Virus record (IMG/VR): IMGVR_UViG_3300045988_174371
Coordinates: 256,001 to 320,000 of that record
Reading direction: 5' to 3' (one strand)
Length of the DNA stretch: 64,000 nt
From: a virus
A program made the position numbers and the translations under genes. Positions 11,952 through 49,635 of this stretch are shown one piece after another. Numbering within the stretch: the first letter of the stretch is position 1; each line of letters opens with the position of its first letter. Under the pieces are notes generated by a model. The model did no database searches and was not told the origin of the DNA. It was given only the letters and a program-made list of their open reading frames with translations.

Positions 11952-12854
11952 TTACGAAATGAGCAGAGACGCAATCATGCCATTCACCCCGTAGAGCAAA
12001 GCAAGGTTATAAACGGCATGTGCAATCCATGAGGCGTAGATGTTCTGAGTCTTCAGCGCCAGGAAGCACAAAGCAATACCCGAAAGCACATACATGAGCA
12101 CCTGCGGAGCGATAGAGAACAAAGTGCCAGTGAAGATGTCCATAGAGCCAAGCGAAACCGCGAGATTAAACGAAGTGAGCAGAGTGCCTGCAACATGGTA
12201 TGCCATGAACCCCAAGGAAGACAGCAGAACCATAAGAACCTTCGCGCCAGGAATGACACTGTTGCGCACGGCAGACATAAGAACACCACGGAACAGCATT
12301 TCCTCAGCAATGGGCGCGAGAGCTACCGTAAACCCAAGGTAAGCCAAGAGCGTAGGGAGATTCATCACCTGGTAGGGCGCTACAGCCTCCACAGGCGGCT
12401 TTCCACCCGCCAACATCGTAGAACCCACACTGATGACCATAAGCGCCACAGCGCCCAGCAGACCGCTCCACAGGTACCTATAAGACAGCATAGGGTTGAA
12501 GACACCAAACAAGACGGAGCGGATGGAGCCGCCAATTCGAGGTGCCACCAGCTTAGCAACAATCACCGTAACCCCAATGATGGTGGCGCTGTACACCATT
12601 GAGACAATGTGATGATTCGCAACAGGGAGGTTAAGGCTCGCAATTGGGTTGCTAAGAAGCCAGGTAATGCCGTTGCTGACGACAAACACGGCGACAATTG
12701 CCGCCAACCCATAGAAAGCAAGCTTCAGTAGACTTCCAGCGCTACTGGAGGTAGGGGAACTAACCTTTTCAGGGATGACATCGGCGGAGTGTTCTTCCTG
12801 CTCCTGTGCAGGCAAAGTGGAAGGCTCAGCGGCGGCAGTCGTATTTTCAGACAC
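11952..12854 (-). CDS. CPBP-family (CAAX/Abi) intramembrane glutamic protease
   Basis: Multi-TM protein with the three CPBP motifs EEMLFRG, FMAYHV and HAVYNL in order. Confidence 0.8.
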   Translation of the reverse strand: MSENTTAAAEPSTLPAQEQEEHSADVIPEKVSSPTSSSAGSLLKLAFYGLAAIVAVFVVSNGITWLLSNPIASLNLPVANHHIVSMVYSATIIGVTVIVAKLVAPRIGGSIRSVLFGVFNPMLSYRYLWSGLLGAVALMVISVGSTMLAGGKPPVEAVAPYQVMNLPTLLAYLGFTVALAPIAEEMLFRGVLMSAVRNSVIPGAKVLMVLLSSLGFMAYHVAGTLLTSFNLAVSLGSMDIFTGTLFSIAPQVLMYVLSGIALCFLALKTQNIYASWIAHAVYNLALLYGVNGMIASLLIS

Positions 12855-18114: not shown

Positions 18115-18122
18115 ATACGCAG

Positions 18123-18210
18123 AGACGGTGACGGGATTTGAACCCGCATACCCGCGAACGGGTGTAACAGTTTTGCAGACTGCCGCCTAAACCAATTCAG
18201 CCACACCGTC
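18123..18210 (-). tRNA. Atypical 88-nt tRNA: long variable arm (type II shape), anticodon GCA, discriminator U73
   Basis: Hand fold: acceptor GACGGTG/CACCGTC; D-arm GCT-GAATTGGTTTA-GGC; anticodon arm GCAGT-CTGCAAA-ACTGT; 19-nt variable arm with ACCCG-TTCG-CGGGT stem-loop; T-arm GCGGG-TTCAAAT-CCCGT. No encoded CCA. Confidence 0.7.
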
Positions 18211-18450: not shown

Positions 18451-21417
18451 CTACTTGGCTGTAAAGTACCCATCAACAGGCATCCATGAAGTCGGGTGGA
18501 TAAGGGTGCCATTTGACGGGTTGAGAGCAGAAATCATCTTCCCATCGCCCAAGTAGATACCAACATGGTTGTACCCGTTCTGGAACACAATGTCGCCAGG
18601 CTGAGGGGTGGCAGTAGGCTTCAGCTCATTCTTCATTGCAAAAGTGTACGGGGTGAGCTTAATGCCGTGCTGAGCGTAAACCCAGGAGACGAAGCCGGAG
18701 CAGTCCCACAACTTAAAGGTCTTGCCACCCCAAACATAGGTACCGCCTAGACCGCTCTTAGCCGTCGCCACAATCTTATCCTTAACGTTAGCGGACTGAT
18801 TAACTAGTGGCTCAGCGGATAGGCTTGCAGGCACTACAACTGACCCACGTGCGACATTATGCAGAGTACTGAGCTTGCCAGTGCGCGAGAACCACTGAGT
18901 AGTAGCGTTACGGTTACCAACAACGTCGCTCACCGGGAAGCCATGCTTGTCCCAGTGACCTTCACGAGCCCACTTCTTACCTACCTCGCTGTTGAACTGG
19001 ATGACGTGCGTGCGGTTAGCGGAAGCATCCCAGCCAACGATGTAGTAGTCGTCACCATTCTTGAAGTCCTGAGCACGCCCACCATGCACGTAATACTCTT
19101 CACTTACAGGAACGCCGAGTTTATTCTTGCCCACCTCGCCGTAGCTCAGCCACTTGCGCGCAATAGCACTATTGATGTCAATACTATGCACGCCGGTCTG
19201 CTCCGTCCATACCAGCTTAACGGTACGACCATCCTTAGTCAGGAAGTCCTGCGTCACAACACCGTTACCCTGGCTGGTTTCCTCAGAGATAGGTACACCA
19301 ATCTCGTTCTGGTGTTGCTCCCAATAGTGACCGATAGCGCCCGGCATCCAAATGTTATAAACACCAGTCTTCTCAGTCCACACCATCTTATGTCCAGAGC
19401 CGAAGTCCTGATAAGTGTAGCCGTTCTTAGTGACCTCTTCAGTCGTTGGGTACTTGTAGGTGCCTGCTGAGCCACCTGCCTGAACCCAACGGTTACCAAT
19501 CGCGCCGCGAGTCCAGATAGTCTTACCCCGAGCCTGATGAGAATAAACTACCGTATGCCCAGACTCGAAACGCTGTTCCCAGGAGGTAGCACTGGTCTTA
19601 CGCTCATTCTCAACAGGCGCACCATAGTTGCGCCTAGTGTCAGTCAGATACTTCTTAATACCATTGACAGCCTGGAACTTGGAGGTCGGGTCAGAAACAG
19701 AGACCTTGCCGGTAGCCTTATCCAAGGTAAGGCGAGTCACAACACCATTCTCAGTACGGAAGTCCTGGTAAACCGTGTTACCCTGAGCCACCTCATCGGT
19801 GATAGGCGTACCAATCGTGCGCACATCACCCATCTCAAGCCACTTATTCGTAATAGGCTCGAAGTTAGTCATGACGTGGACACCATTCTTGGCTGACCAA
19901 ATCAGTTTCTTGCCGCTATCGAAGTCTTGCTGTGCAGACTCACGGAAGCTGTACTCGTCAGTCAAGGGGTACCCAAAGCGCCCATATTCGTTACCGTTCT
20001 TTACCCAGAGGTCACCGATTGCTCCACGCAGGTAGATAGCACCACCCTTACCATCCTTACGGTGCAGGATACGGTAACTATTCGTGAAGTCCTGAGCCCA
20101 ACCTCCCGGCAACGCAAGCTCACGCCCAATAGGGGTGCCGTAACGCGCCTCATCCTTATGCCAGTAGCTACCGATACCAGAGTAAATGTTGATGTAGCCG
20201 CCGTTATTGAAGTGACGGTCACCATTATCCTTGACGGGAGCGGGGGCATCCTTCGGCTTCTCGGGGGCGGCAGAACGGTCAGTTACCGGCGAAGGGGACA
20301 CCTTGCCATTACTGCCCCACTTAGAAACATAATCGCGGTTGCGCACAAAGTTATCCAGCTCAGCGGCAGTACCGTTGAATACGTTGGAGTCACCGGCGAA
20401 CGGCGCAACAGATGAGAACTGCCAAATGTCGAAGCTGGTAGAGCCGCCAGGCATGAAGCCAGGACCCGTGGAATAGTTTGCAATATGCAACGGCAAACCA
20501 TTGAACTCATTGGTGCCACCCATACAAGTATTCCACCAGTCAGTAGTGGAGTAGATGGTGGGGTAGCGTCCGGTCTTATCCTTATAGGTATTCACAAAGT
20601 CCCACGTCCAAGTCTTCAACTGAGACTGAGACATGCCGAAGCAAGTGTTGCCTAGCGACGGGTAGGGGTTGTATTCCAAGTCAAGCATACCCGGCAAAGT
20701 CTTGCCGTCTGCCGTCCAGCCGCCACCGTTCTTAATGAAAATTTCAGCCTGAGTACGCCCAGAGGACTGCGGCGGCAAGGCGAAGTGGTAGCCGCCAGTG
20801 ACAAGACCTGCGTCACGTGCTCCCGCATAGTGCTTGGAGAACGTAGGGTCTACATAGGTGGTGCCTTCACTGCTCTTCATCCAGGAGAAGCGGCTACCAG
20901 CGGCATACTGCGCTCCCCAGTTGATGTTCGGCTGATGGTTCGAGACATCCTGACCTAGGACACCCCAGGAGGGCTTCCAGCCGTTCCTGGTGGTTAGCGG
21001 GACTACAGCCAGGGTAGGTGCGGTCGCGTTAGAGATAGTTGAGTCCTGTGCGCCAGTAAGGTTCTGCTTGTCAATAGCCTGCGCCTTAGCACCCCAGCCG
21101 ACAGTAGCGCCCCCCTTCTTCGCGCCCTCTTCAGGAGTCTCAGCGAGAGCAACCTGAATGTTCTGGACGGATACAGAGCCCTGCAAGGTAGGCGCGGCTT
21201 CAGTAGTAGCAGTATCACCCTCTAGATGGGTTTCCGCGTCATTCTTAATGGTTTCCGTCTCGGAGACCGTAATAGTTGAACCGGCGGTAAGAGGCTTCTT
21301 CTTCTCATCCGGCTCAGCATTAGCCACAGCCGGAGCTACTGTGCCTGCAATAGTAGCAGTCAGCAGGGCAGAAGCGAGAACGGTCTTCTTAACGTTGGTA
21401 TTGGTCTTCGTAGTCAA
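18451..21417 (-). CDS. Secreted tri-modular cell-wall hydrolase: GH25 muramidase + ~8 LGFP repeats + NlpC/P60 endopeptidase
   Basis: GH25 pattern GQDVSNHQPNINW...FSWMKSSEGTTYVDPTF...GGYHFA...LDLEYNPY...DIWQFSS. Repeats of the form (Y/L/I)G.P...E......Q.F. C-terminal WGGKTFKLWDCSGFVSWVY...GYNHVGIYLGDG. Start moved to the TTG at 21417 (GAAGGA upstream), which gives signal peptide TTKTNTNVKKTVLASALLTATIAGTVAPAVANA. Confidence 0.8.
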   Translation of the reverse strand: MTTKTNTNVKKTVLASALLTATIAGTVAPAVANAEPDEKKKPLTAGSTITVSETETIKNDAETHLEGDTATTEAAPTLQGSVSVQNIQVALAETPEEGAKKGGATVGWGAKAQAIDKQNLTGAQDSTISNATAPTLAVVPLTTRNGWKPSWGVLGQDVSNHQPNINWGAQYAAGSRFSWMKSSEGTTYVDPTFSKHYAGARDAGLVTGGYHFALPPQSSGRTQAEIFIKNGGGWTADGKTLPGMLDLEYNPYPSLGNTCFGMSQSQLKTWTWDFVNTYKDKTGRYPTIYSTTDWWNTCMGGTNEFNGLPLHIANYSTGPGFMPGGSTSFDIWQFSSVAPFAGDSNVFNGTAAELDNFVRNRDYVSKWGSNGKVSPSPVTDRSAAPEKPKDAPAPVKDNGDRHFNNGGYINIYSGIGSYWHKDEARYGTPIGRELALPGGWAQDFTNSYRILHRKDGKGGAIYLRGAIGDLWVKNGNEYGRFGYPLTDEYSFRESAQQDFDSGKKLIWSAKNGVHVMTNFEPITNKWLEMGDVRTIGTPITDEVAQGNTVYQDFRTENGVVTRLTLDKATGKVSVSDPTSKFQAVNGIKKYLTDTRRNYGAPVENERKTSATSWEQRFESGHTVVYSHQARGKTIWTRGAIGNRWVQAGGSAGTYKYPTTEEVTKNGYTYQDFGSGHKMVWTEKTGVYNIWMPGAIGHYWEQHQNEIGVPISEETSQGNGVVTQDFLTKDGRTVKLVWTEQTGVHSIDINSAIARKWLSYGEVGKNKLGVPVSEEYYVHGGRAQDFKNGDDYYIVGWDASANRTHVIQFNSEVGKKWAREGHWDKHGFPVSDVVGNRNATTQWFSRTGKLSTLHNVARGSVVVPASLSAEPLVNQSANVKDKIVATAKSGLGGTYVWGGKTFKLWDCSGFVSWVYAQHGIKLTPYTFAMKNELKPTATPQPGDIVFQNGYNHVGIYLGDGKMISALNPSNGTLIHPTSWMPVDGYFTAK

Positions 21418-21602
21418 AAGTTTGTTTCCTTCAAATGTGTTACTCGGGTCGCATAGCTCTATGAACGTACAACCGGCGGTCAAGTCTAGCGGCTCATTGA
21501 ACCTCACCTGTTTAGGCATACTCGAATAATATAGCGGAACACCCGCCGCATAAGTATACTCAGGTGGCAGATACTCACTTAAGGAAACATTAGGCTTTAG
21601 TG

Positions 21603-32199: not shown

Positions 32200-33267
32200 C
32201 TAGTTATTCGGTGGCTTAGGGAAATGCTCAATCTTCGCCCACGCCTGAGCCTCTATAACGTTCCAATACTTCCAGGTGAAAAGCAGGGCGTGTTCAGGTG
32301 AAGGGTATACCTGCGCCCTATTAGATGCCTGAGACTTCGGACGATTCTCCCACCGCTTCCTACATGCCGGGCAACCCCGCATGAAAAGGCTTAGCGGCGC
32401 AGGGCACACCCTACCATCAGTAGCTACATGCCCACACTTCACATGTACTTGCTCAATCAAATGCTGGTAATCTAGGTAATCAGCATAAGGAGTCGGTATC
32501 CCTCGTAACCACTTGCGAGTATGCCTCTTCTGGCAAGACTCACACCCCTTGGTGAATGAATCCGCGTCTGCTCCGCACTCTTCACATAGGATAGGCTTCC
32601 TGTGTTGCGGTCGGTAAGGGGTCGCATCCACTTCAATGGGCGCTACCCCGTCAGTGAGGAACACCTCAGAGTTGAGCGCGGAAATCCTCACCCACACCTG
32701 CTTCATGGCAAGAGGAGTGACAACTTTCCCTGTATCCAGTACATACTGGTGGCTCTTAAAGCACGCATTGCATCCTGGCGAGAAAAGAGCTTCGGGCGCG
32801 CAACAGACATTGCAGACATTAGTCGTAGCGCCACCCCCGTCCGCATAGTCCAGCATCTCCCTGAAGACGTGGCGGCTCGTACTAAACTTATTGCTATTCA
32901 CGATACGCTCATAACATGCTAGACAGCTGGGCGTAGGAATAGACTCATCTGCTGTAGGGCACTCCATGCAGGGGGCATCCTCGCGCTGTTCACGGAAGGA
33001 AACCCATAGGGAGAAGTCGTACCCCTGCATATACCACCAGTAGTGGCGGTATTGGCACGCTTTACAACTCATGTTTAAGTCAAGGTGGTATGTGCCGCAA
33101 GGACAGTTGGAACCCATTGCGTCTCTGTATGCCATTGTTGCAGGGTAATCACTAGAGAGGCCCTTGAAATGAAGCCGTCGGTGTCGCTTAAAGCACTTCT
33201 GGCAGTCTGGGTCGATGGTTGGTGAATCCATAGACCAGCCGCACTCAGTGCAATATCGCTTTCCCAT
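32200..33267 (-). CDS. Cysteine-rich protein with six tandem CxxC..CxxC zinc-ribbon-like modules
   Basis: Six units: CTEC-x12-CQKCFKRH, CPC-x10-CKACQYRH, CMEC-x11-CLACYER, CNVC-x10-CNACFKSH, CEEC-x10-CESCQKRH, C-x9-C-x10-CPACRKRW. Start moved to the ATG at 33267, because the track extension to 33366 runs through the palindrome at 33321..33356. Confidence 0.6.
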   Translation of the reverse strand: MGKRYCTECGWSMDSPTIDPDCQKCFKRHRRLHFKGLSSDYPATMAYRDAMGSNCPCGTYHLDLNMSCKACQYRHYWWYMQGYDFSLWVSFREQREDAPCMECPTADESIPTPSCLACYERIVNSNKFSTSRHVFREMLDYADGGGATTNVCNVCCAPEALFSPGCNACFKSHQYVLDTGKVVTPLAMKQVWVRISALNSEVFLTDGVAPIEVDATPYRPQHRKPILCEECGADADSFTKGCESCQKRHTRKWLRGIPTPYADYLDYQHLIEQVHVKCGHVATDGRVCPAPLSLFMRGCPACRKRWENRPKSQASNRAQVYPSPEHALLFTWKYWNVIEAQAWAKIEHFPKPPNN

Positions 33268-33320
33268 AAAGTGTGCGTTCCCCCTTTCTGAAACTGATAT
33301 TGAAACCTTTAGGGATAGCT

Positions 33321-33356
33321 GGAGGGGGTTACCAGTCATGACTGGTAACCCCCTCC
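33321..33356. terminator. Perfect 36-bp palindrome downstream of secA
   Basis: ggagggggttaccagtcatgactggtaaccccctcc is its own reverse complement. It lies 50 nt after the secA stop. No U-tract. Confidence 0.5.
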
Positions 33357-33405
33357 ACACTAGCACTTCAAGTATACCACCAAAATAGGTGGCGTATGAG
33401 CAATC

Positions 33406-36400
33406 CTACTTGCGCTCGCCTAGCAGAATCTTCATGAAAGTGCGCTTCACAAAGACAGTGTTCATCTGGTTATACATGTCGCCAGCTTCAAGCTTATATT
33501 CAATCTTCGGGTCTTTCTGCGCGTAAGCCCTCATCCCGATACCTTCCTTGAGGTAATCCAGCTCTGCGAGGTGTGCAATCCACTCCTCATCAATTGCGGT
33601 CAATGCGGCAAGTCGAGCCGTCGTCGCGGCAAGGTCACGCGCCACCTCAACCCGCATGTCCCACTGTTGCTCGGCGGCTGACACAAGCTCCCTCACCAAC
33701 ACTTCCTGCGTCAGCTCAGTAGCCGTCGGGTACTCCTCCAACAAGTCCTTAGGACTAATCGAAGGCTTCCAATCCAGCTCCTCGTAAAGGTGCTTCCAGA
33801 GCCCCTGCAAGTCCCAGTCATCCAAATGCTGACCATTATCTGCAAGCCACTGCTCTACGGCAACCGTAACGGCTCCTTCCAAGAACCATAGGGTCTGGTC
33901 TAGAGTGAAGTCAGTATCACCATGCAAGAGCTTCTTGCGTTCTGAGTACGTCTTCTCACGCTGTTTCGTGAGTACGTCATCATATTCCAGAGTGCTCTTG
34001 CGCCCTTCCCTGTGCCTGCCATCAATTGCCGCCTGTGCATTCTCAATGGCTTTGGAGAGAACCTTGCCGGAAAGCGGCATGTCAGGGGACTTCGCCATAA
34101 CGCGCCTAATTCCTTCCACCTGTCGCGGGCTGTAAAAGCGTAGCAATTCATCGTCAAGAGAGAGGAAGAACTTACTGCGCCCTGGGTCTCCCTGCCTGCC
34201 GGAACGACCAATAAGCTGGTTGTCGATACGGCGGGAATCGTGCCTTGCGGTACCTATCACATACAAGCCGCCAAGCTCACGTACAAGCTCAGCTTCCTGC
34301 GCCACCTTCTTATCCATGATGGGCTGGATTGCCTGCCGCTGTTCTTCGTAAGCCGTGGGCGTATGCTCAGGGGTTAGCCCCATAATTTGCATCTGCTCTT
34401 CAACTAGCATGTCCGCGCTACCACCCAGTAGAATATCGGTGCCTCGACCTGCCATGTTGGTAGATACGGTGACGGCTCCCAGGCGACCTGCTTGGGCGAT
34501 AATGTGGGCTTCCTGCTCCACGTGTTTTGCGTTCAGGACGTTGTGGTTAATACCAGCGGCGGTTAGCATCCTGGAAAGCTTCTCGGAAGCTGAAACGCTG
34601 GTTGTGCCGATAAGGATAGGCTGTACCATGCGGCGCTTCTCACCATCAGGTGTCGTATAGAACTCGTCAGTGTCCTCATGAAGGGCTTTAATCTCCTGCA
34701 CAACAGCCTGGAACTTCTTAGCCTCAGAAATGTATATTTCATCTGCCAAGTCCACACGTTGCTTCTCCTTGTTCGGGGGAATAGTGCGGACAGCCAGGTT
34801 GTAGGTTGCCGCAAGCTCCGCCGCCTCAGAAGCCGCTGTACCAGTCATCCCAGACATCTTCTCGTAAAGTCGGAAGAAGTTCTGAAGGGTGATGGTCGCT
34901 ACTGTCGGGTTCTCAGGCTGAATCTGAACCTGCATATTGCCGTTACGTCGCTCTTTCGCTTCAAGTGCCTGGTGTAGACCATGACTGTAGCGGCGACCTT
35001 CCATCGCGCGCCCAGTGTGCTCATCGACAATCATCACTTCAGCACCCTGAATAATATAGTCCTTACCCAGAGTGTAGAGAGTTTCCGCTTTGAGGGCGGC
35101 GTTGAGGAAGGTGAGCAATTCGCTGTGGGTGCTAAAAATTGCGTTCTCTTTACCCCCAAGCTGGTTCTCTATCTCGTCGTAACCTGCGTCAAGGAACTCT
35201 GCTGTACGCTTCTTCAAGTCGAAAACGTAATGAACATCCGGCTTGAGGCTACCAACAATACTGGCACTAGCAGTAAACCATTTCTCGGCGGTTGCCGCGT
35301 CTCCTGCCGGGGCGGAGATGATAAGCGGAGTACCTGCCTCATCAATAAGGATTGAATCCAGCTCGTCAATGATGACGTAGTTCAGCTCACGTTGGACAAG
35401 CTCGTTAGGGCTCTTAGCGATATTGTCTCGCAGGTAATCAAAGCCAAACTGGTTATTCGTGCCATACACAATGTCGCGCGCATAGATGCCCTGCCGTTCC
35501 TCAGGCGACATCTGCTCCTGAATAGCCCCATGAGTGAGTCCCAGGAAAGAATAGACGCGACCCATCTGCTCCTCCTGCTCACGGGCAAGGTAGTCATTAG
35601 TGGTCACAAGGTGAGCACCTTTGCCAGTCAAGGCATTAAGGTACATTGGGGCTACCGCCGTAAGCGTGTTATGGGTGACGATATGGTCACCCGCGAGGAA
35701 CAGATGAGTGGGGTGGGTGACAGTGAAGCAAACCTGCTCAGCTGACCTACCTAGGTTCTCTACAGCAATAATACCCACCTTGCTCTTAGGCTTCTTATTG
35801 ATGTCTACAGCCCAAGCCAGTACACCTGATGAGGGATAGACGCAGGCGTGCCACCCCATAGAGCGCGCGACCCATGCAATAGAGTCCGCCGCCGCCTCAG
35901 ACCAGGCGAGCGCAGTCAGCTTATTGGACTCCTGACGGACAGCCAAATGCTTCATAAGGAGCGCAATCTGTTTCTCTGACCCTGAAAGATGATGGGAGCC
36001 GAAAGGCATCGCTGGGTAGATGGTGTTAGCCAGAATATCGTTCAGGTTACAGTCATCCGGCAAAGCCTGCAAAGCGGTGATGTTTACCTGGTAGTGGGTA
36101 CAGCTATTGTCGTAATCCGTGGTTTCAATAATAGCCCCTTCATCGATAAGCTCGCGCAGTTTCGTCCAAGCGGGGCTAGAATCGCCTGTATGCTGGTTTC
36201 TGGAGTAGCCTAGGTAAATAGAGGTGAAGGTCGTTGAGGGGTCTAGAATGGACGATACATGCCCTGACGTTGGCATTTTAGAGGCAGTTGCACCCTGCAT
36301 GGGAATGAAAAGCCTCTCGCCTGCATCCAATCGCTCAATAATCTCACCCGTGGTGACAGTCTCATACGAGTTGTACTTACCACGTACATCCCATAGGTGC

Positions 36401-36909
36401 TCCAGGTTACAGTCAATAAACCTGCCGTCTTCAAAGTGGACACGGTAGACCTGCTGAGAGCCCTGCGGGAACACCCCACTAACCACAGTGAGCTCACCCG
36501 AACCAGCATAGATAGTGTCACCCACGCTAATCTCCCCCGCCGGGATAGCGCCCTCAGGGGTGGGGATGAGCGTATCAGTAGTAACCGCCTTGCCTTCACC
36601 AGTGCCCATTTCTGCGACCTGCCCGAAATGCAGAGCAATTCCACCTAGGAGCTGTACAGGGTACTGCTTCTTGCCAAGAACACGGTTAGATGCTTCGCGA
36701 GCGACGGCAAACGCCTCAGGAAGAAGGATGTCTAGGCTTTCGCCTGCGGTGACCCTATCTTTAAAATCGTCAGTCTGAGAACGCAACTCAGCATCAGACA
36801 TCTCCTCATACACTGGCTCTAGGTCTAGGATGGCTTTCACTAGCTCCTGGGCGCGCTTCTCTTCACGGCGCTCACCAAAACGCAAAGCCTTCTCAATAGG
36901 ATTAACCAA
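33406..36909 (-). CDS. secA: SecA preprotein translocase ATPase, interrupted by an intein
   Basis: SecA motifs MGTGEGK[intein]TLTAVAPMYLNALTGKGAHLVTTNDYLA, IIDELDSILIDEAGTPLIIS, SGMTGTA, TNMAGRGTDI, GGLYVIGTARHDSRRIDNQLIGRSGRQGDPG, AYAQKDPKIEYK. TTG start with GGAAGGGA upstream. The protein ends about 40 aa after the AYAQKDP motif, with no Cys-rich C-terminal tail. Confidence 0.9.
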   Translation of the reverse strand: MVNPIEKALRFGERREEKRAQELVKAILDLEPVYEEMSDAELRSQTDDFKDRVTAGESLDILLPEAFAVAREASNRVLGKKQYPVQLLGGIALHFGQVAEMGTGEGKAVTTDTLIPTPEGAIPAGEISVGDTIYAGSGELTVVSGVFPQGSQQVYRVHFEDGRFIDCNLEHLWDVRGKYNSYETVTTGEIIERLDAGERLFIPMQGATASKMPTSGHVSSILDPSTTFTSIYLGYSRNQHTGDSSPAWTKLRELIDEGAIIETTDYDNSCTHYQVNITALQALPDDCNLNDILANTIYPAMPFGSHHLSGSEKQIALLMKHLAVRQESNKLTALAWSEAAADSIAWVARSMGWHACVYPSSGVLAWAVDINKKPKSKVGIIAVENLGRSAEQVCFTVTHPTHLFLAGDHIVTHNTLTAVAPMYLNALTGKGAHLVTTNDYLAREQEEQMGRVYSFLGLTHGAIQEQMSPEERQGIYARDIVYGTNNQFGFDYLRDNIAKSPNELVQRELNYVIIDELDSILIDEAGTPLIISAPAGDAATAEKWFTASASIVGSLKPDVHYVFDLKKRTAEFLDAGYDEIENQLGGKENAIFSTHSELLTFLNAALKAETLYTLGKDYIIQGAEVMIVDEHTGRAMEGRRYSHGLHQALEAKERRNGNMQVQIQPENPTVATITLQNFFRLYEKMSGMTGTAASEAAELAATYNLAVRTIPPNKEKQRVDLADEIYISEAKKFQAVVQEIKALHEDTDEFYTTPDGEKRRMVQPILIGTTSVSASEKLSRMLTAAGINHNVLNAKHVEQEAHIIAQAGRLGAVTVSTNMAGRGTDILLGGSADMLVEEQMQIMGLTPEHTPTAYEEQRQAIQPIMDKKVAQEAELVRELGGLYVIGTARHDSRRIDNQLIGRSGRQGDPGRSKFFLSLDDELLRFYSPRQVEGIRRVMAKSPDMPLSGKVLSKAIENAQAAIDGRHREGRKSTLEYDDVLTKQREKTYSERKKLLHGDTDFTLDQTLWFLEGAVTVAVEQWLADNGQHLDDWDLQGLWKHLYEELDWKPSISPKDLLEEYPTATELTQEVLVRELVSAAEQQWDMRVEVARDLAATTARLAALTAIDEEWIAHLAELDYLKEGIGMRAYAQKDPKIEYKLEAGDMYNQMNTVFVKRTFMKILLGERK
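35668..36588 (-). mobile_element. 307-codon intein in the SecA Walker A loop (class-3-like: Ala1, Trp-Cys-Thr triad, terminal HN, +1 Thr)
   Basis: Extein junctions GEGK|AVTTDTL... and ...LFLAGDHIVTHN|TLTAV. Excision restores the canonical GEGKTLTA. Block B is NLEHLW, block F is VCFTV, block G is VTHN. The central ~180 aa may be a decayed homing-endonuclease domain. Confidence 0.8.
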
Positions 36910-37492: not shown

Positions 37493-37584
37493 TGGCGGTG
37501 CCGACAGGATTCGAACCTGCGAGCGCCTTTTACAGCGCTACCTCATTAGCAGTGAGGCTCTTTAAACCACTCAGACACGGCACC
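37493..37584 (-). tRNA. tRNA-Ser (anticodon GCU), CCA encoded
   Basis: Acceptor GGTGCCG/CGGCACC, G73, encoded CCA. Anticodon arm CCTCA-CTGCTAA-TGAGG. Long variable arm. T-arm GCAGG-TTCGAAT-CCTGT. Confidence 0.9.
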
Positions 37585-38516: not shown

Positions 38517-38603
38517 TATCTTTCCTTTCACAAAGAGGTTACCGCAGGTAAGAAGAGAAAGGGTCTCTTGGTACCTGCGGTAACATGAACTTATATTCTA
38601 GCG

Positions 38604-38674
38604 AGCGGCTGACGGGAATCGAACCCGCGTATCAGGCTTGGGAAGCGTGCGCTCTACCATTGAGCTACAGCCGC
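38604..38674 (-). tRNA. tRNA-Gly (anticodon CCC)
   Basis: GCGGCTG TAGCTCAATGGTAGAGC ... TTCCCAA ... GCGGGTTCGATTCCCGT CAGCCGC with discriminator U. One C-C mismatch in the anticodon stem. No encoded CCA. Confidence 0.85.
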
Positions 38675-40469: not shown

Positions 40470-40700
40470 TGACGATAACGGCAACATTGGCGCAACGCCT
40501 AGCGTATCAATTTAGACTACATAACCTACATTCGCAGGTTACGTTGCCCAGATTGATAGCCGCCTGTTTGGTCTCCACGGCACCGTATGTGTCGCAGTCC
40601 GCTAGTACGCTGGTCATATTAACCCTAGCGGGGCTAAAAAGAGTTTTCACCCCCTTAGAGATGCGGTTCTTCCTCTTAGGAGTAGAAGCATTCTTAGTCC
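40470..40700 (-). ncRNA. Candidate omega (right-end) guide RNA scaffold overlapping the tnpB 3' end
   Basis: Minus-strand stem-loops CCGCTAG/CTAGCGG (40599..40631) and TAACCT/AGGTTA (40522..40541) lie within or just before the last codons of tnpB, where TnpB guide RNAs are normally encoded. Extent unknown. Confidence 0.3.
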
Positions 40701-42114
40701 TGTCGCGCCCTGGGTGCTTGAGGGATGCCCTAGCAACCGGAGTCTTAAGAGCCGCCTGTGGCTGTAGTGCGCGGTTCTTAGCACGAGTCTTCCTCGCCTT
40801 CTCCACCTTCGGCACGGCGCGGGCGGCAATATTAGCGGCGGCATTAACATCCCTACCCATGTCACCATGCTTGGAGCAAACGGAAACCTTGTGAGTAGGA
40901 TGAGTAATTTTCTCGCCGCACAGGTGGCAGACCTGCGACGTGTTAGCCGCGTTCACTGACACAACCCAGCCGCCATTCTGCGTGACGTAGTGGGTGAGCC
41001 ACTGGGTGAACGCGCCGCGATTCCAGCGCCCGTTCTGCATGGTGTTGCTAATCCAACCAAGGTCTTCCACAGCCACAACCGCATTGCCGTAGAAGTGCGA
41101 CAGGTAAGCAATTTCCTGCGCCGCAACAATCGCCAGCTCCCGTTTCTTCCTAGAAGCGGCTTCACGATGAAGTTGAGCCTCATCAATCGCACACATGTGC
41201 GCCTGGCGGTCATAAAGAAGCTTGTCTGCTTTCTTGTTGAGCGCTCGAACCTGACGCTCAGACGCTTTAATAGAGTTCCACAGGGAATGGACGCGCCGTG
41301 AGAGGGTGGTTTCATGAACCACACGCCCAGTGGTGGAGTTGCGAACCACAACAGTAGCATAATCATTGATACCAACATCCACACCGACAACGTAATCACC
41401 TGAGAACTGCACGATAGGGTTATCAGTAACAATCGTGAAAATGAAGATGGGGTGACCCTTTTCAACCTTGACCAGCGGCAAAGTCACTTTACCCTCAGTG
41501 AAACGCACGTTATCGAAATTAAAGATTAGCCGGCACCACTTGCCCCAAATAATCATTTTCAAGATGATTTCACCATTAACAACAGGGTCATTCTCGATGA
41601 CCGCGTACTGCTTATCTACCGCGCCAAGATTAATGTAGTCCTCGCCATACGACGGCGCAGAAGCGTTCACAGTGCGCTTCCAACCCTGCGAAACGTACTT
41701 ACTGCTCTCGCCGCTTGCCGCCGCAATACGCTCCTGCCAGGCGCGATATTCCGTCACCACGCGATGCCTAAACAGGCGCTCCTTGCGGGACCTGCCCGTC
41801 TTGAGTTTGATAGGCTCACCATTCTTATCTGTGAGTGGATTGCCATCCTCGCCTTTTTTATCAGGCACCAGAAAATCAGGCATAGTGACACCAGCCTGGC
41901 GACCAACCTCAGCAGGCGCAGTAGCAGTAGCGGGCGACAGCTCAGCACCTAGCACCTCATCGTTACGGACAGTATAGGTTGCGTAAGCTGAAAGGTTACG
42001 AACCTCAGATGCAAGCTCAGCCATGATGAGCCTAGTATCAAGTACCTCACCATCCAGGTCTAGGATGTGGGAAGGGCGCGCCACAAAAGCCCTATAGGTT
42101 TGGTTTCTTGCCAA
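40507..42114 (-). CDS. tnpB: TnpB-like RuvC/zinc-finger nuclease (IS200/IS605 accessory, OMEGA-type)
   Basis: RuvC-I VGVDVGINDYA, RuvC-II AVVAVEDLGWI, zinc finger CHLCGEKITHPTHKVSVCSKHG, RuvC-III DRDVNAAANIA. Start placed at the TTG at 42114, with AGGAGG 5 nt upstream (track start 42315). Confidence 0.8.
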   Translation of the reverse strand: MARNQTYRAFVARPSHILDLDGEVLDTRLIMAELASEVRNLSAYATYTVRNDEVLGAELSPATATAPAEVGRQAGVTMPDFLVPDKKGEDGNPLTDKNGEPIKLKTGRSRKERLFRHRVVTEYRAWQERIAAASGESSKYVSQGWKRTVNASAPSYGEDYINLGAVDKQYAVIENDPVVNGEIILKMIIWGKWCRLIFNFDNVRFTEGKVTLPLVKVEKGHPIFIFTIVTDNPIVQFSGDYVVGVDVGINDYATVVVRNSTTGRVVHETTLSRRVHSLWNSIKASERQVRALNKKADKLLYDRQAHMCAIDEAQLHREAASRKKRELAIVAAQEIAYLSHFYGNAVVAVEDLGWISNTMQNGRWNRGAFTQWLTHYVTQNGGWVVSVNAANTSQVCHLCGEKITHPTHKVSVCSKHGDMGRDVNAAANIAARAVPKVEKARKTRAKNRALQPQAALKTPVARASLKHPGRDRTKNASTPKRKNRISKGVKTLFSPARVNMTSVLADCDTYGAVETKQAAINLGNVTCECRLCSLN

Positions 42115-42162
42115 CGCACCCTCCTTTCTGGCATCCTTAGTTACTGTTAATCCATCTAATGT

Positions 42163-42203
42163 TACCAATATTACCAATATTAAATCATGGGCGCAATACC
42201 AAT
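42163..42203 (-). repeat. Three ATTGGTA direct repeats upstream of tnpB
   Basis: Plus-strand taccaat at 42163..42169, 42172..42178 and 42197..42203. The first two are part of a 9-bp tandem ttaccaata x2. Confidence 0.6.
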
Positions 42204-42358
42204 GAAAGTGGCGACAGTTGTCTAGCCTTAGTATGCCAGGGCTTCCACTCTTCCCACGTCTGCTCCCTCGAATCCTTGAAGAAGGGCTCGATAGCATCAC
42301 GAAGCTCCGCCTCATTGGGGGTGTTATCGGGGATGGGATGGGTCTGGTCTTCGGTCAC
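42185..42358 (-). CDS. Short ORF (57 aa), possible 5' remnant of the interrupted gene
   Basis: GTG at 42358 with GAAAGG 7 nt upstream. Encodes TEDQTHPIPDNTPNEAELRDAIEPFFKDSREQTWEEWKPWHTK... and stops inside the region upstream of tnpB. Confidence 0.3.
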   Translation of the reverse strand: MTEDQTHPIPDNTPNEAELRDAIEPFFKDSREQTWEEWKPWHTKARQLSPLSLVLRP

Positions 42359-44186: not shown

Positions 44187-45047
44187 CTATATACAAGGCT
44201 CACACTTCACCACAAGATTGTACTTATAGCCAAACCCAAACGTATTACCGTATGCTGAAGCCCCATCATCTCCTACCTGTGCTCCAGCGCACGTAACAAG
44301 CCATAGTGACCTTGCGCCATCCCTGCGCCACATATCTTCAATGTCGGTCAGCTGACTCTGAGGAACCGTATACATCTGCGTTACATGCCACTGGGTCACC
44401 TTCCCCCCACCGTCAGTCACGAACACCCGCTCACAGCCCTTCAAGCGATGCAAGTACCCCCACGGGGACAAATAGTAGTTCTGCCTATTGACATGCCCCG
44501 CAAGGATTGTTGAGCCCTCTGCGGCTGAAATCCTATTCGACGGCGAATACCAAATACCGGAACCATCAGTTGTGATAGGTAGAACCATCTTCCCGCTCTG
44601 GACACCACTAGGGGTTAGCCTAGTAGAAACACCTAAGGATGGGATGCTCCACCCAAAGGCGGGGAGTCCCGCCGGAATATTAGCAGTAATCTTGTTGGCG
44701 TCCGCTTCGCAAGTAGGCTCATGCACGGGCTCAGCAGGCTCAGGGGCGTACAAGGTGTAGTCATCTAGCACAGGCATCTTTTCGTCACCCCCCGCATCTG
44801 GCGTAGGCTGATACACCGGCTGACCGGCATCACTCGTCGCAATAGGCGTAGCATCCTGATGTGTAGCCGTGTAAGGCACACGAATAGTGTTGTCTTTGCC
44901 GACATATGGGCGATATGTAGCCATACCCCACCAAGCGCCGCCACCAAGCGCCGCCGCCGCTCCACCAAACACCAGAGCACGCCTAGAAACTAGCGGACTC
45001 GACTTATTAGCTTCACTAGATGTAACATTCTCGCTCTGTTTACGCAT
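44187..45047 (-). CDS. Membrane-anchored sortase-family transpeptidase
   Basis: N-terminal TM segment ALVFGGAAAALGGGAWWGMA. His motif TILAGHVNR. Cys motif LWLVTCAG. Confidence 0.8.
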   Translation of the reverse strand: MRKQSENVTSSEANKSSPLVSRRALVFGGAAAALGGGAWWGMATYRPYVGKDNTIRVPYTATHQDATPIATSDAGQPVYQPTPDAGGDEKMPVLDDYTLYAPEPAEPVHEPTCEADANKITANIPAGLPAFGWSIPSLGVSTRLTPSGVQSGKMVLPITTDGSGIWYSPSNRISAAEGSTILAGHVNRQNYYLSPWGYLHRLKGCERVFVTDGGGKVTQWHVTQMYTVPQSQLTDIEDMWRRDGARSLWLVTCAGAQVGDDGASAYGNTFGFGYKYNLVVKCEPCI

Positions 45048-46409: not shown

Positions 46410-49118
46410 CTAGGAGGCATCCTCAGCGTTCTTCTTGCGACGCTTCGTGAAGTACACAGCGCCACCCGCAAGAGCCAGAATACCAATACCGCCAGCAACA
46501 GCCACAGTAGTAGCATCCATACCGGTAATACCGTAACCAGTGTCACCAGTCTCAGCCTTAGCCTTCTCAATAGGCTTAGGCTGTTCAGGCTTAGCAGGCT
46601 CAGAAGGCTTCGGGGTCTCGGGGGTTACAGGCGGAGGGGTAACCTTGGTGACAGTCATGTCGCAACCGTCAGTGTCTTCATCCACGGTAGCGTTCACCTG
46701 GCACTCCTTCGGAGGGGTGGTGGGGGTCGGGTCTTCCGGGGTGGGGTTATTCGTTAGCACGATAGTGTTGAGAATACCCTCAGAGGCGACACGAGCCATG
46801 TCAAGGTCGTTCTTGAGAGTGACCTCAACCTCAAACTCGACAGTCTCACCCGCCTTAAGCTCACCAATTTCCCAGACATTGCCGTTTACGACACCGCGAC
46901 CGTTAGTGTTCAGGAACTTCACCGAAGCAACATCGAACTGCGCGTTATCCGGGAACTCGGAGATAACAGCCTTCTCCATGTCAGCACCGGAGGCGTTCTT
47001 AGCCTGAGCCTTCCAACGCAAGGTAGCGCCCGGCTTCACCTCAGATGCAGGAGTCATCAGCTCCTTATTCACCTGACCAGTAATTTCCTTCACACGGTGG
47101 ATGGAAGTGACGATAGGCTTATTATTGATGGTCACAACACCAAGGTCACGCATCTCATCAGCCTTAAAGTCGTTCAGGGACTTAGACTCCACCTTAAGAG
47201 AGTAGGCGGAATTAACAGCCAGCTTACCCGGCTCCTTAGCGGTAGCGGTAACCACGTCAGCAACATGACCGTCAAAGTCGGTGCCAGTACCAGAGACGAG
47301 CTTACCCTTCTCAACCTTGATGTCGAAGAGGTTGGTTACGTCCTTGCCATCAGCGTCCACAACCTTAAGCTTATCCTCAGTAATGGACACCAGAGCACGC
47401 CAATTGCCGTCGCCGTCCTTCGCATACTCCACAAGGTCAGTGATGGAGAACTGCTCAGGTGCCTTCACGCCGGTATTGCCCGTAACGGTCTGAGTCGGCA
47501 AATCGTTACCAGCAGGAATAACAATGTCCTCGTTCGCAACGGTCTTCTCAGGCGCAACATTAGCCAGCTTAATGACCTTCTTGTTCACCTTAACCTCGGG
47601 AACCGGCTTCGGGGCAGGCTTAGCCACCGGAGGAAGCTCAGGGACAGGCTTCAGAGGCTTCAGCTGAGGCTTCACCGGAGCAACAGCGGTAGGCGCAACA
47701 GTGTTAGCGCTCAACATCAAGTGGTTGTAGGAAGCATCAATGGAGTAGTCGCTGTAGCGGGAAGCGCCGGTGTTCTGCGGGTCACCAATAACACCGTCAG
47801 TGCCAGGCACACCCTCATTGCCAGTGGTGCCGAAGAAGAACGTGCCACCATTCTCCATCAGGTAAGTGACACCCAGGTACTTCAACGCATCGTCGTTCTC
47901 ATCAAACACTGCGCCGCCCTGGTTCGAACCAGCCTTGATGTAGAAGCCACGGTCTACCAGCTGAGAAGCAGTACCGTGAACCTTCTGAGCCTCAGGCGCG
48001 ATACGAGAGTCCTTATTCACGAACGTAGCAAGGACACCCTTACCCGGCGCAGTAATCTCGTAACGAACAGCAGACTCAGTACCATTGTTCTCCTGAGCAT
48101 TCAGAGAACCAACAGTGTTGTAAATCTTCTTCTCGTACTTCTCACCAGTATCACCATAGGTGAAGTACAGCTGAACCTCAGAAGCGTAAGACTTCTGCAT
48201 AGCCACAATGTCATTGTAAGAAGAATAGACATCGTACATGTTCTGCCACTTAGGAGAACCATCAGCGCCTACCGGAGAGCCGTTCGGGTTGGATACGAAA
48301 CGAAGAATCTTCACTTCAACATCCAGAGGACGCTTCGTTTCCTTGTCAATCGCCACACCCTTGTACTTCATGGTCAAGTTCGGGTTGTTCGGGTCAAGGT
48401 TAGTGAAACGGTAGGCGTACTCAGACGACCAGCTATCCGGGAAGTCGGTACGGTCAGCGGTTGAGCCAGCCGGTGCCTTGCCGTTGATGGTTGCGAGGTT
48501 ATTCGGGCTATCTACAAGCTCGAAAGGCTGTTCCAGCGCAAGCTTATCAACGTTGTTGATAGCCTTGTACGGGTTAGCGTTGGATACCTGCTCAGCGTAC
48601 AGCTTGTCGTAAGCCGCCTTCGCCTCGTTGTACCGCTTGGTAGCTTCCTCGTTTTCCTTGGTAATCTTCTCGTTCTCAGCCTTGATGTCAGCAATCTGCT
48701 TCTCAATCTGAGAGCGGTCAGCATTAGCCTTCTCAGCCTTCTTAGCGTCAGCCTTATTATCAGCGATGGTCTTTACAGCTTCACGCAACTTGGCAATGGT
48801 GGCAGTACTTTCCTTCTTAGCCTCAGCAACCTTAGCCTCAGCCTCAGCCATAGAAGAAACAGTCACCTCCTGAGTCTCACCAGCAGACACCTTGACACCC
48901 TGCGCCTCAGCCGCCTTCACAGCCTCATCAAGCGCAGAATAATCAACAGGGATGTCCTGCGTGGTCTTACCGTAAGCCTCAGCAGACACAGCACCCTCAT
49001 ACTTGAGGGGCTTCGCCTCATCGGTCGTGATGGCATTAGCCGCACCTGCAACAGAGGTCGTGCCAATAAGTGCAAGACCGACACCAGCGGTCATCTTCTT
49101 CATAGAACTCTTAGACAT
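46410..49118 (-). CDS. Wall-anchored adhesin with antigen I/II-like domain order
   Basis: Signal peptide MSKSSMKKMTAGVGLALIGTTSVAGAANA (GAGGAG upstream). The order is an Ala/Lys/Glu coiled-coil region, a central beta-rich domain, a Pro-rich segment PVKPQLKPLKPVPELPPVAKPAPKPVPE, then Ig-like C-terminal domains. The C-terminus has KAKAETG, a hydrophobic segment and KRRKK. Confidence 0.7.
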   Translation of the reverse strand: MSKSSMKKMTAGVGLALIGTTSVAGAANAITTDEAKPLKYEGAVSAEAYGKTTQDIPVDYSALDEAVKAAEAQGVKVSAGETQEVTVSSMAEAEAKVAEAKKESTATIAKLREAVKTIADNKADAKKAEKANADRSQIEKQIADIKAENEKITKENEEATKRYNEAKAAYDKLYAEQVSNANPYKAINNVDKLALEQPFELVDSPNNLATINGKAPAGSTADRTDFPDSWSSEYAYRFTNLDPNNPNLTMKYKGVAIDKETKRPLDVEVKILRFVSNPNGSPVGADGSPKWQNMYDVYSSYNDIVAMQKSYASEVQLYFTYGDTGEKYEKKIYNTVGSLNAQENNGTESAVRYEITAPGKGVLATFVNKDSRIAPEAQKVHGTASQLVDRGFYIKAGSNQGGAVFDENDDALKYLGVTYLMENGGTFFFGTTGNEGVPGTDGVIGDPQNTGASRYSDYSIDASYNHLMLSANTVAPTAVAPVKPQLKPLKPVPELPPVAKPAPKPVPEVKVNKKVIKLANVAPEKTVANEDIVIPAGNDLPTQTVTGNTGVKAPEQFSITDLVEYAKDGDGNWRALVSITEDKLKVVDADGKDVTNLFDIKVEKGKLVSGTGTDFDGHVADVVTATAKEPGKLAVNSAYSLKVESKSLNDFKADEMRDLGVVTINNKPIVTSIHRVKEITGQVNKELMTPASEVKPGATLRWKAQAKNASGADMEKAVISEFPDNAQFDVASVKFLNTNGRGVVNGNVWEIGELKAGETVEFEVEVTLKNDLDMARVASEGILNTIVLTNNPTPEDPTPTTPPKECQVNATVDEDTDGCDMTVTKVTPPPVTPETPKPSEPAKPEQPKPIEKAKAETGDTGYGITGMDATTVAVAGGIGILALAGGAVYFTKRRKKNAEDAS

Positions 49119-49390
49119 AGTTCGAATCTCCTCATAGGGGAAGTGTGAATGAACGAGTTATGCCACTGAACCTAAGCGTTGAACCTAGTCAAACACCCCG
49201 GCAGGCAAAGAAACATCACCCCTAGCCAGTGCATATACACAACTATATAGCATCAGCACCCGCCGTGCATACCCCGAAGGCACAGGGAAAATAAAGAACC
49301 CCCGAAAATGTTCCCAGGGCACAGAATGAGTGGGGAGCTAATTCGAACACTCGAACTAACACCCCACTCATTGCCATATTGAGTTATGAG

Positions 49391-49462
49391 AGCCGGTTGT
49401 CGGAATCGAACCGACGACTTGCAATTTACGAGATTGCCGCTCTACCACTGAGCTAAACCGGC
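49391..49462 (-). tRNA. tRNA-Thr (anticodon CGU)
   Basis: GCCGGTT TAGCTCAGTGGTAGAGC GGCAAT-CTCGTAA-ATTGC ... GTCGGTTCGATTCCGAC AACCGGC U. No encoded CCA. Confidence 0.9.
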
Positions 49463-49561
49463 ATGAACAACGAAAAGAGCGAAAACACACCATTGCTCTA
49501 AGGATAGTACATGCGTACCATCAATACGTGTAATACAAAGGTTAGTACTTCTCGTTGCCCG

Positions 49562-49635
49562 TCGGGATGACAGGATTCGAACCTGTGACCCTCTGCTCCC
49601 AAAGCAGATGCGCTACCAAACTGCGCCACACCCCG
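49562..49635 (-). tRNA. tRNA-Pro (anticodon UGG)
   Basis: CGGGGTG TGGCGCAGTTTGGTAGCGC ATCTGC-TTTGGGA-GCAGA ... CACAGGTTCGAATCCTGT CATCCCG A. The C1-G72 pair is typical of tRNA-Pro. Confidence 0.9.

Follow-up and report, generated by a model that had tools for sequence, protein, structure and literature searches.

How can SecA, the motor of general protein export, function as an ATPase when its nucleotide-binding loop is interrupted by 307 additional residues? This question is raised by a secA gene within a 64,000-nucleotide stretch of the IMG/VR virus record IMGVR_UViG_3300045988_174371 (positions 256,001 to 320,000 of the record), which as a whole is called the window below. Here we report a computational analysis of this gene, its insert and related genes from other sources. 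In our judgement the insert is very probably a class-3 intein located at GEGK/T of SecA (the slash marks the insertion point), which is predicted to splice by means of a block-F cysteine, is probably no longer mobile, and appears to have been inherited vertically.

The open reading frame (ORF) at 33406..36909 on the minus strand encodes a 1167-residue SecA precursor. All four SecA domains of Pfam (SecA_DEAD, SecA_PP_bind, P-loop_SecA, and SecA_SW) were detected in the precursor, SecA_DEAD being broken into two stretches by the insert. The canonical SecA equivalogs of NCBIfam score above their cut-offs (PRK12904, 926.3 bits vs. 814; TIGR00963, 890.9 vs. 800), and the SecA2 models score below theirs, a profile that identifies the predicted protein as a canonical preprotein translocase ATPase SecA. 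Translation of the minus strand of 35668-36588 yields 307 residues, AVTTDTLIPTPEG...LFLAGDHIVTHN, flanked by ...VAEMGTGEGK on the N-terminal side and by TLTAVAPMYLNALTGKG on the C-terminal side; the insert (307 codons, 921 bp) splits the Walker A motif between its Lys and Thr. Removal of these codons leaves an 860-residue SecA that is colinear end to end with SecA1 of M. tuberculosis (1NKT, E=2.7e-226) and aligns to it without gaps through AEM.TGEGKTLT..P.YLNAL. A first-pass annotation of the window had placed the insert at 35668-36588 and proposed that its removal restores GEGKTL; both translation and the alignment with 1NKT show these coordinates to be exact, and the motifs that it had listed (NLEHLW, VCFTV, VTHN, and Thr+1) were all located at checked coordinates, on a gene strand that it had left unstated. 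The parts of the gene are as follows.

33406..36909, minus strand: secA, 1167-residue precursor (TTG start according to the ORF lister, stop codon included; Pfam and NCBIfam)
36589..36909, minus strand: N-extein, 107 codons, ending in ...AEMGTGEGK, with the Walker A Lys as residue -1 (colinear with 1NKT)
35668..36588, minus strand: intein, 307 codons, Ala1 to Asn307 (PDB sequence matches, family search, AlphaFold, Foldseek)
36289..36588, minus strand: N-terminal part of the Hint domain, intein residues 1-100, with block A (AVTTDTLIPT) and block B
36391..36408, minus strand: block B, NLEHLW, with His64 (B:10) and Trp66 (B:12) (coordinates verified)
35794..36288, minus strand: central inserted domain, residues 101-265, with two remnants of LAGLIDADG motifs
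35668..35793, minus strand: C-terminal portion of the Hint domain (intein residues 266-307), with blocks F and G
35719..35733, minus strand: block F, VCFTV, with Cys287 (F:4), the predicted initiating nucleophile (coordinates verified)
35668..35679, minus strand: block G, VTHN, with Thr305 (G:5), His306, and the terminal Asn307, predicted to cyclise
35665..35667, minus strand: Thr+1, the residue that opens the C-extein, predicted second nucleophile and Walker A Thr of the mature SecA
33406..35667, minus strand: C-extein, 753 codons and the stop codon, with the remaining NBD1, PPXD, NBD2, and the scaffold and wing domains (Pfam, 1NKT alignment)

Comparison of the full insert with the sequences of the PDB using phmmer returned significant matches to inteins only, namely gp41-1 (6RIZ/6QAZ), the DnaB-1 intein of Mycobacterium chimaera (6RIX/6RIY), and the class-3 DnaB intein of M. 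smegmatis (6BS8/6OWN), with E-values of 1.2e-9 for 6RIZ, 2.7e-7 for 6RIX, and 6e-7 for 6BS8. The N-terminal part of the Hint domain aligns to each of these three entries, and with the central domain left out the alignments extend from residue 2-5 to the terminal Asn, with blocks A, B, F, and G aligned. A word-indexed protein search with the intein gave two matches and overlooked long proteins, P0004 among them, even when a profile was used, so 1.84 billion representative proteins were searched exhaustively with HMMER, of which 8163 matched at E<=0.001. We extracted 227 intein copies from the fetched proteins, mostly from the best 150 of the 8163 matches. Ala occupies position 1 in 155 of the 227 copies, Lys precedes the intein in 175 and Thr follows it in 182, and nearly all of the copies terminate in ...THN. 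With thousands of inteins as its homologues, the insert is not a chance pattern.

The predicted structure is in line with this homology. In a first AlphaFold model, built from an alignment with distant relatives, the predicted local distance difference test (pLDDT) score was ~90 for the Hint part and poor (31-65) for the central domain. A second model, built from an alignment restricted to the SecA clade of the window, reached a mean pLDDT of 84.3 and a predicted template modelling (pTM) score of 0.78; the Hint region scored ~80-95 in both models. Below E=0.001, Foldseek matched nothing but inteins (PI-SceI, TliVMA, PhoVMA, 6BS8, MchDnaB-1, and gp41-1), the splicing domain matching 6BS8 with a TMt of up to 0.84, and Hint domains of the Hedgehog and BIL types appear at weaker E-values. 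From these models we are confident that the insert is predicted to have the Hint fold.

According to the paper that defined them (PMC2807308), class-3 inteins combine a non-nucleophilic residue 1 with a Trp at B:12, a Cys at F:4, and a Thr at G:5, and have either Thr or Ser as their +1 residue, a definition restated in PMC5050341 and PMC7891396. The window intein has each of these features, with Ala1, His64/Trp66, Cys287, Thr305-His306-Asn307, and Thr+1; its block-B His is retained and, as is usual in class 3, the class-1 Thr at B:7 is missing, with Asn in its place (NLEH, NxxH). In the alignment with the Msm DnaBi1 intein (6BS8), His64/Trp66 fall on ...AQHQW, Cys287 on ...VRCVEV, and the THN terminus on ...PTHN. 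Trp66, Cys287, and Thr305 are likewise paired with W, C, and T in MchDnaB-1, and Cys287 with the engineered D107C of 6RIZ. The equivalent residues of Msm DnaBi1 are His65/Trp67, Cys118, and Thr137, and its C118A variant does not splice (PMC6195587). Ala1, His64, Trp66, Cys287, Thr305-His306-Asn307, and Thr+1 are invariant in seven SecA-borne inteins that are 29-49% identical to the window copy, as well as in eight representatives of the window's SecA clade with extein identities down to 62%, and Cys287 is also invariant in a further alignment with LAGLIDADG-bearing relatives. Sequence homology, the predicted Hint fold, and the invariance of the catalytic residues thus agree with the first-pass proposal of an intein, and its assignment to class 3 by the triad with Ala1 and Thr+1 is upheld by the presence of every defining residue and by their invariance in diverged copies. 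One further cysteine, Cys60 (36409-36411), lies four residues before the block-B His; it is invariant in all aligned SecA-borne inteins and common in the wider family.

A splicing route can be modelled on the pathway of the MP-Be DnaB and Msm DnaBi1 inteins (PMC7891396, PMC2807308). The precursor, with 307 residues between the Lys and the Thr of GEGKT, should lack ATPase activity because the inserted domain would prevent the formation of the P-loop; a similar argument for an inactive precursor was made for the P-loop inteins of RadA and DnaB (PMC6195587). During splicing, Cys287 of block F would attack the peptide bond between Lys(-1) and Ala1, giving a branch with an internal thioester, and the N-extein would be transferred to the oxygen of Thr+1. 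Cyclisation of Asn307, aided by His306, would then release the intein, and an O-to-N acyl shift would produce GEGKTL, in which Thr+1 would become the Mg2+-coordinating Thr of Walker A. In this dual role, Thr+1 would resemble the Ser in the P-loop of DnaB, as described for DnaBi1 (PMC6195587).

The intein might instead splice by a route other than that of class 3, for example by a direct, class-2-like attack of Thr+1 on the N-terminal junction, with Cys287 in a structural role. When made on sequence alone, class assignment has exceptions, Ser1 occurs in the SecA-borne relatives P0059, P0173, and P0175, and the status of inteins that combine the Trp-Cys-Thr triplet (WCT) with Ser1 or Cys1 was left open by the original authors (PMC2807308). 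However, class 2 uses Cys+1 (PMC2807308), whereas the window intein has Thr+1; the full co-varying set is present, with Ala1 accompanying W, C, T, and Thr+1, and the homologous Msm DnaBi1 depends on Cys118, its equivalent of Cys287. We regard splicing by such a route as very unlikely and retain the class-3 pathway as the preferred reading.

Comparison with characterized inteins provided a context for this assignment. Msm DnaBi1 and the window intein are both located in Walker A just before the Mg2+-coordinating hydroxyl residue, which is also the +1 nucleophile, and they share Ala1, the block-B His and Trp, the block-F Cys, and Thr-His-Asn; neither has the Thr of TxxH (DxxH in DnaBi1 vs. NxxH), and their sequences match at E ~2e-8, beside the structural match given above. 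They differ in host and +1 residue (DnaB and Ser vs. SecA and Thr). DnaBi1 is a mini-intein with a disordered linker, whereas the window intein has a central domain of ~165 residues that is predicted to be folded. Cys48 of DnaBi1, which takes part in its regulatory disulfide, corresponds to Val47 of the window intein, and Cys60 of the latter corresponds to Ala in DnaBi1. The class-3 prototype, MP-Be DnaB of mycobacteriophage Bethlehem, likewise has a non-nucleophilic residue 1, the WCT triplet, and Thr+1, as well as a length of ~300-340 residues with an inserted domain of the endonuclease type (PMC2807308), but its Pro1 follows Gln in a phage helicase, whereas Ala1 of the window intein follows the P-loop Lys.

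The Lys/Thr junction is the 'classic' P-loop insertion site of inteins according to Kelley et al. (PMC5050341). The same Walker A position is used by the P-loop inteins of phage terminases and ATPases, including mycobacteriophage TerL1-a and the inteins of P0002, P0012, and P0070. Inteins of the P0002/P0012/P0070 type belong to the same family as the window intein, with 46-53% identity in the splicing blocks, Ala1, and a ...VTHN terminus followed by Thr. They differ in their hosts, which are terminases, helicases, and AAA-type ATPases, and in that most of them have retained an intact LAGLIDADG. The family is widespread in phage genomes, where 212 records were found, with helicase and terminase genes being common hosts. 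Other SecA inteins from metagenomes (P0051, P0058, P0059, P0125, P0149, P0173-P0175, P0184, P0192, P0194, and P0198) are inserted after TG(E/S)GK, terminate in ...THN before TL, and have the invariant His, Trp, Cys, and Thr-His-Asn in common with the window intein. They are 46-51% identical to it in the splicing blocks, and differ in that several carry canonical LAGLIDADG motifs and some have Ser1; none of them was met with in the publications searched. Among PDB sequences, gp41-1 (6QAZ; variant 6RIZ) matches the N-terminal half of the Hint domain best (E=1e-9 to 7e-11), yet it belongs to class 1, is split in nature, and has Cys1, a Phe at B:12, and an Asp at F:4; only its engineered C1A/F65W/D107C variant mimics the class-3 triplet. 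PI-SceI and the TliVMA and PhoVMA inteins are the best full-length structural matches and also combine a Hint domain with an inserted domain, but they are class-1 inteins with active endonucleases, whereas the window intein is devoid of the catalytic LAGLIDADG residues.

The central domain, probably derived from a LAGLIDADG homing endonuclease, has two apparent remnants of LAGLIDADG motifs, motif 1 at 36196-36243 (DPSTTFTSIYLGYSRN) and motif 2 at 35923-35979 (SEKQIALLMKHLAVRQESN). Related inteins have PYVxGAFLGDGC and LLQGLMDTDGSI at these positions, together with LAGLIDADG_3/Hom_end domains of Pfam; the corresponding stretches of the window copy are DPSTTFTSIYLGYSRN and SEKQIALLMKHLAV, with no DTDG segment. 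The acidic residues are gone from both motifs, with IYLGYS (SIYLGYSR) in place of FLGDGC and LLMKHLAV where the relatives have GLMDTDGS. Neither the domain of the window copy nor a profile of seven clade members matched any Pfam family even at E<=10 or any PDB sequence. In the model built with the clade-only alignment, the domain has a pLDDT of 74-92; its second half is predicted to consist of H205-215, E216-219, E223-228, H231-243, E247-252, and E259-264 (H, helix; E, strand), an order that fits the alpha-beta-beta-alpha-beta-beta-alpha fold of LAGLIDADG endonucleases, and its first half is irregular. The full-length Foldseek matches to PI-SceI, TliVMA, and PhoVMA have TM scores of 0.5-0.55 normalised to the query, and cover the whole intein, not the domain alone.

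Selection on the domain was assessed by three pairwise codon comparisons of close strains, in which the ratio of non-synonymous to synonymous divergence (dN/dS) was 0.03-0.05 for the exteins, 0.06-0.13 for the Hint parts, and 0.04-0.08 for the central domain. In the comparison with P0004, identity is 71% and 69% for the two exteins, 63-64% for the Hint parts, and 37% for the central domain, which suggests that the latter evolves faster than the Hint parts and exteins over longer distances. Eighteen positions of the domain are invariant across the clade. An IMG/VR relative (L086) has an in-frame deletion of 12 nt (4 codons) corresponding to window positions 36220-36231 (residues 120-123, TFTS), inside the remnant of motif 1; this region is therefore tolerant of in-frame indels. 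In all three strain pairs the synonymous divergence of the intein is 1.4-2 times higher than that of the exteins (e.g., 0.31-0.33 vs. 0.16), with equal GC content at third codon positions (GC3); this could be due to an exchange of intein alleles between strains or to a different codon constraint.

Several points weigh against the interpretation of the insert as an immobile class-3 intein. The curated intein and Hint models are not significant on the insert (Pfam Hint_2, E=0.13; NCBIfam, none); an alignment to Pfam Hint models, which had been suggested as a check, therefore failed, and the intein is recognised instead from pairwise and PDB sequence comparisons and from the search for its family, with homology established by the PDB matches and that search, as well as from the fold of the model. 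The failure is a limit of the sensitivity of the curated models, not a defining feature of the insert. The class-3 chemistry is deduced from the sequence and from related inteins. That the central domain descends from a LAGLIDADG endonuclease is plausible, the match obtained with hhalign against the LAGLIDADG domains of relatives being colinear but weak (second half-domain, E=0.0033, probability 9.7%, 57 columns). Finally, the secA genes of two close contigs, L001 (3754-3756) and L002, contain an in-frame TAG 34 codons past the intein.

The last of these points could be explained if the intein were a relic that has lost splicing, leaving a secA pseudogene or a non-functional precursor. The TAG occupies secA codon 448 of L001 and L002, for which the window has CAG (Gln) at 35566-35568. 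In addition, secA of a 306-kb NCBI long-read contig (BNJU01003487.1; L003, 10001-13395) is present as two overlapping genes of 798 and 334 residues, which implies a frameshift, and the host may have a SecA of its own and so not need this copy. The TAG is either a nonsense mutation in a gene that some strains can do without or an assembly error in contigs of ~3x coverage, and the frameshift may be a long-read assembly error or a real inactivation. Recoding of TAG to Gln was considered and rejected, TAG being the commonest stop codon of the window ORFs (23 of 39). Against a relic, the window copy is an intact ORF of 1167 codons, exteins and intein together are under strong purifying selection (dN/dS 0.03-0.13), and the catalytic residues are invariant throughout the clade, even at an extein identity of 62%. 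On balance, we consider the loss of splicing highly improbable.

An intein that splices might nevertheless still be mobile, if its central domain were an active homing endonuclease. The purifying selection on this domain and its predicted fold could be read in this way, as could the raised synonymous divergence of the intein, if it reflects allele exchange between strains. On the other hand, the acidic residues of both motifs are lost along with DTDG, neither the domain nor the clade profile matches a LAGLIDADG model, and every sampled clade member has the intein, with no empty target site seen in the clade. The chance that the intein is still mobile by this means appears slim; judged by its motifs, endonuclease activity of the central domain is very unlikely, and because the catalytic residues have been lost, the intein is probably no longer mobile by homing. 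The description of the domain as a decayed homing endonuclease in the first-pass annotation was therefore half right: the catalytic LAGLIDADG motifs are gone, but the domain folds in the model and its dN/dS is low. By its predicted fold and the purifying selection on it, the central domain is retained, not decaying.

A tentative and, in our estimate, rather unlikely idea is that the intein has been domesticated as a post-translational switch, in which the central domain, catalytically dead but maintained by selection, and a block-F Cys sensitive to redox and metals, as in Msm DnaBi1, gate splicing by redox, zinc, or a ligand. In a homologous class-3 intein, oxidants and zinc halt splicing reversibly. 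If the window intein were such a switch, its splicing would time the activation of the element's SecA and hence the export of its surface and cell-wall proteins.

A search with the spliced SecA sequence recovered the window's SecA clade as seven clusters at 90% identity, which are 99, 88, 74, 73, 69, 67, and 62% identical to the window protein and hold ~1200 member sequences, with proteins of 1163-1183 residues. The inteins of the clade are 306-328 residues long, occupy the same site, have the same catalytic residues, are devoid of LAGLIDADG motifs, and are present in every sampled member. The next relatives are ~50% identical and all free of inteins; they include the SecA1 proteins of Actinomycetota (Rothia, Arthrobacter, Nocardia, Corynebacterium, and Mycolicibacterium) and a group of 858-residue SecA proteins. 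One of the latter is encoded on a 331-kb contig (L090, 10001-12577), where the uninterrupted site reads TGSGK/TIMAL and the layout resembles that of the window, with a TnpB gene upstream and a GH25-LGFP gene ~10 kb downstream. The intein and the exteins have the same GC content and GC3 (0.53 and 0.59-0.60). A single old invasion, followed by fixation, loss of the endonuclease, and vertical inheritance within the clade, fits the clade-wide presence of the intein, its absence from the next relatives, and the equal GC and GC3; the identities to P0004 are in keeping with vertical descent. Such an order of events is what the homing cycle predicts for its late stage.

Outside the clade, the same SecA site is filled in at least 10 other metagenomic SecA lineages, several with an intact LAGLIDADG and some with Ser1. 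A survey of SecA orthologues, which had been called for to establish the presence or absence of the insert, thus found the site occupied in the window clade and in these lineages, and empty in the next relatives. The other SecA inteins and those of unrelated ATPases (terminases, helicases, and AAA-type) are equally distant from the window intein in the splicing blocks (46-53%). Since the SecA-borne inteins are no closer than those of unrelated ATPases, the SecA P-loop has likely been invaded repeatedly, as judged from these identities. Four loci from a scan of species-representative genomes (L009, L010, L067, and L083) were rejected as intein-bearing; they encode ordinary intein-free SecA proteins, the extein pattern having dominated the scan. 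A reading in which the insert stays in SecA for good, as a lineage-specific domain that is not excised, is hardly credible: a conserved central domain that is predicted to fold might be expected of an added functional domain, but Walker A is split between Lys and Thr, the insert combines a predicted Hint fold with a terminal His-Asn still intact and a nucleophile at +1, its homologues include thousands of inteins in unrelated ATPases, and a related element lineage has a SecA without it.

Inteins concentrate in ATPases of replication, recombination, and repair. In full-text searches of the literature, no natural intein of SecA was described, and SecA and inteins came up together only in biotechnological applications or in unrelated contexts; prior cataloguing is possible. 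SecA is not among the hosts named in the main text of a large survey of intein hosts (PMC4760082) and is not named in the founding paper on class 3 (PMC2807308). The question of whether this insertion site had been catalogued can thus be answered in part, in that no paper was found, while the site recurs in many metagenomic SecA genes. Class-3 inteins, their link with phages, and the Lys/Thr site of the P-loop are already established; the apparent novelty is in the SecA host and the virus-like genomic setting, not in a new kind of element. The current understanding of inteins is unchanged, and a known pattern is extended to a new host protein and a new setting. The combination of a SecA host with a conserved dead endonuclease domain is noteworthy to specialists and not surprising. 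If the intein splices as predicted, this SecA copy would be active only after splicing, which would place export by this SecA under a post-translational step. SecA copies with intact endonuclease motifs, the dead but conserved clade of the window, and the lineage with the empty site provide a natural series on the fate of inteins after fixation. The window intein also adds a compact P-loop class-3 intein with a predicted Thr+1 nucleophile to the protein-engineering repertoire.

It is unusual for a virus-like element to encode SecA. The window has a GC content of 52%, nearly all of its genes are on one strand, and few of its ORFs match a Pfam or PHROG family. Contigs that carry this SecA clade cluster at ~280-370 kb and form a family in which SecA seems to belong to the core genes. 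One of them, IMGVR_UViG_3300045988_174689 (306,861 bp), is catalogued as viral and shares 98.6% identity with the window across secA. No DNA match to 24 kb of the window was found among GenBank phages and PLSDB plasmids, and no capsid, portal, or terminase genes were seen in the 64 kb of the window. The designation of the element as a virus comes solely from its IMG/VR label, and it may be a huge phage or a giant plasmid-like element. The first-pass annotation had spoken of an essential translocase; its identity as SecA stands, and its essentiality is unproven because the carrier is a virus-like contig family rather than a demonstrated bacterial chromosome.

The neighbourhoods of other intein-bearing SecA genes are of a similar kind. 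At three inspected loci (L087, 6155-9862; L088, 1138-4533; L089, 5758-9300), SecA has an intein at the same P-loop site, and typical chromosomal neighbours are missing. The surroundings resemble mobile elements, with nrdD interrupted by a NUMOD1 ORF, GmrSD, PARG, a DNA methylase, unannotated ORFs, and giant Rib/SLH surface proteins. These three loci hint that intein-bearing SecA genes may be typical of large mobile elements; if so, a SecA with a P-loop intein could recur among giant virus-like elements more than on bacterial chromosomes. Candidate phage SecA proteins from a curated phage collection were rejected, the matches looking like host DNA or unannotated fragments. The oral 'Inocle' giant elements were considered as a replicon type and rejected; they are of similar size and share the sortase and surface theme, but have a GC content of 24-32% vs. 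52% for the window.

Next to secA, a 388-residue ORF at 32200-33366 lies directly downstream on the same (minus) strand and contains repeated Cys-x2-Cys motifs followed by basic and aromatic residues (...C..C(F/Y)(K/E)RH...). It matched no Pfam or PHROG family, and its position is held in relatives by an ORF of 355-402 residues. A 602-residue ORF at 40507-42315 on the minus strand has a Cas12f1-like/TnpB TNB domain, and TnpB-like genes are located directly upstream of secA in L001 and L090.

The window also encodes a cluster of envelope-related proteins, as follows.

18451-21519, minus strand: 1022-residue GH25-LGFP-NlpC/P60 protein
44187-45047, minus strand: sortase
46410-49118, minus strand: 902-residue adhesin-like protein (Adhesin_P1_N, DUF11)
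10479-11591, minus strand: NlpC/P60-CHAP protein
11952-12854, minus strand: Rce1-like protease

Elsewhere in the window there are a PspA/IM30 protein, a second sortase, and at least seven ORFs with signal-peptide-like N-termini. This gene content suggests that the element remodels the surface of its host, and its own SecA may be used for that purpose. A C5 methylase, a dNMP kinase, and the TnpB-like protein are encoded as well. Five tRNA genes, each of them on the coding strand, are interspersed with the protein genes.

18122-18210, minus strand: tRNA-Cys (GCA)
37493-37584, minus strand: tRNA-Ser (GCT)
38603-38674, minus strand: tRNA-Gly (CCC)
49390-49462, minus strand: tRNA-Thr (CGT)
49561-49635, minus strand: tRNA-Pro (TGG)

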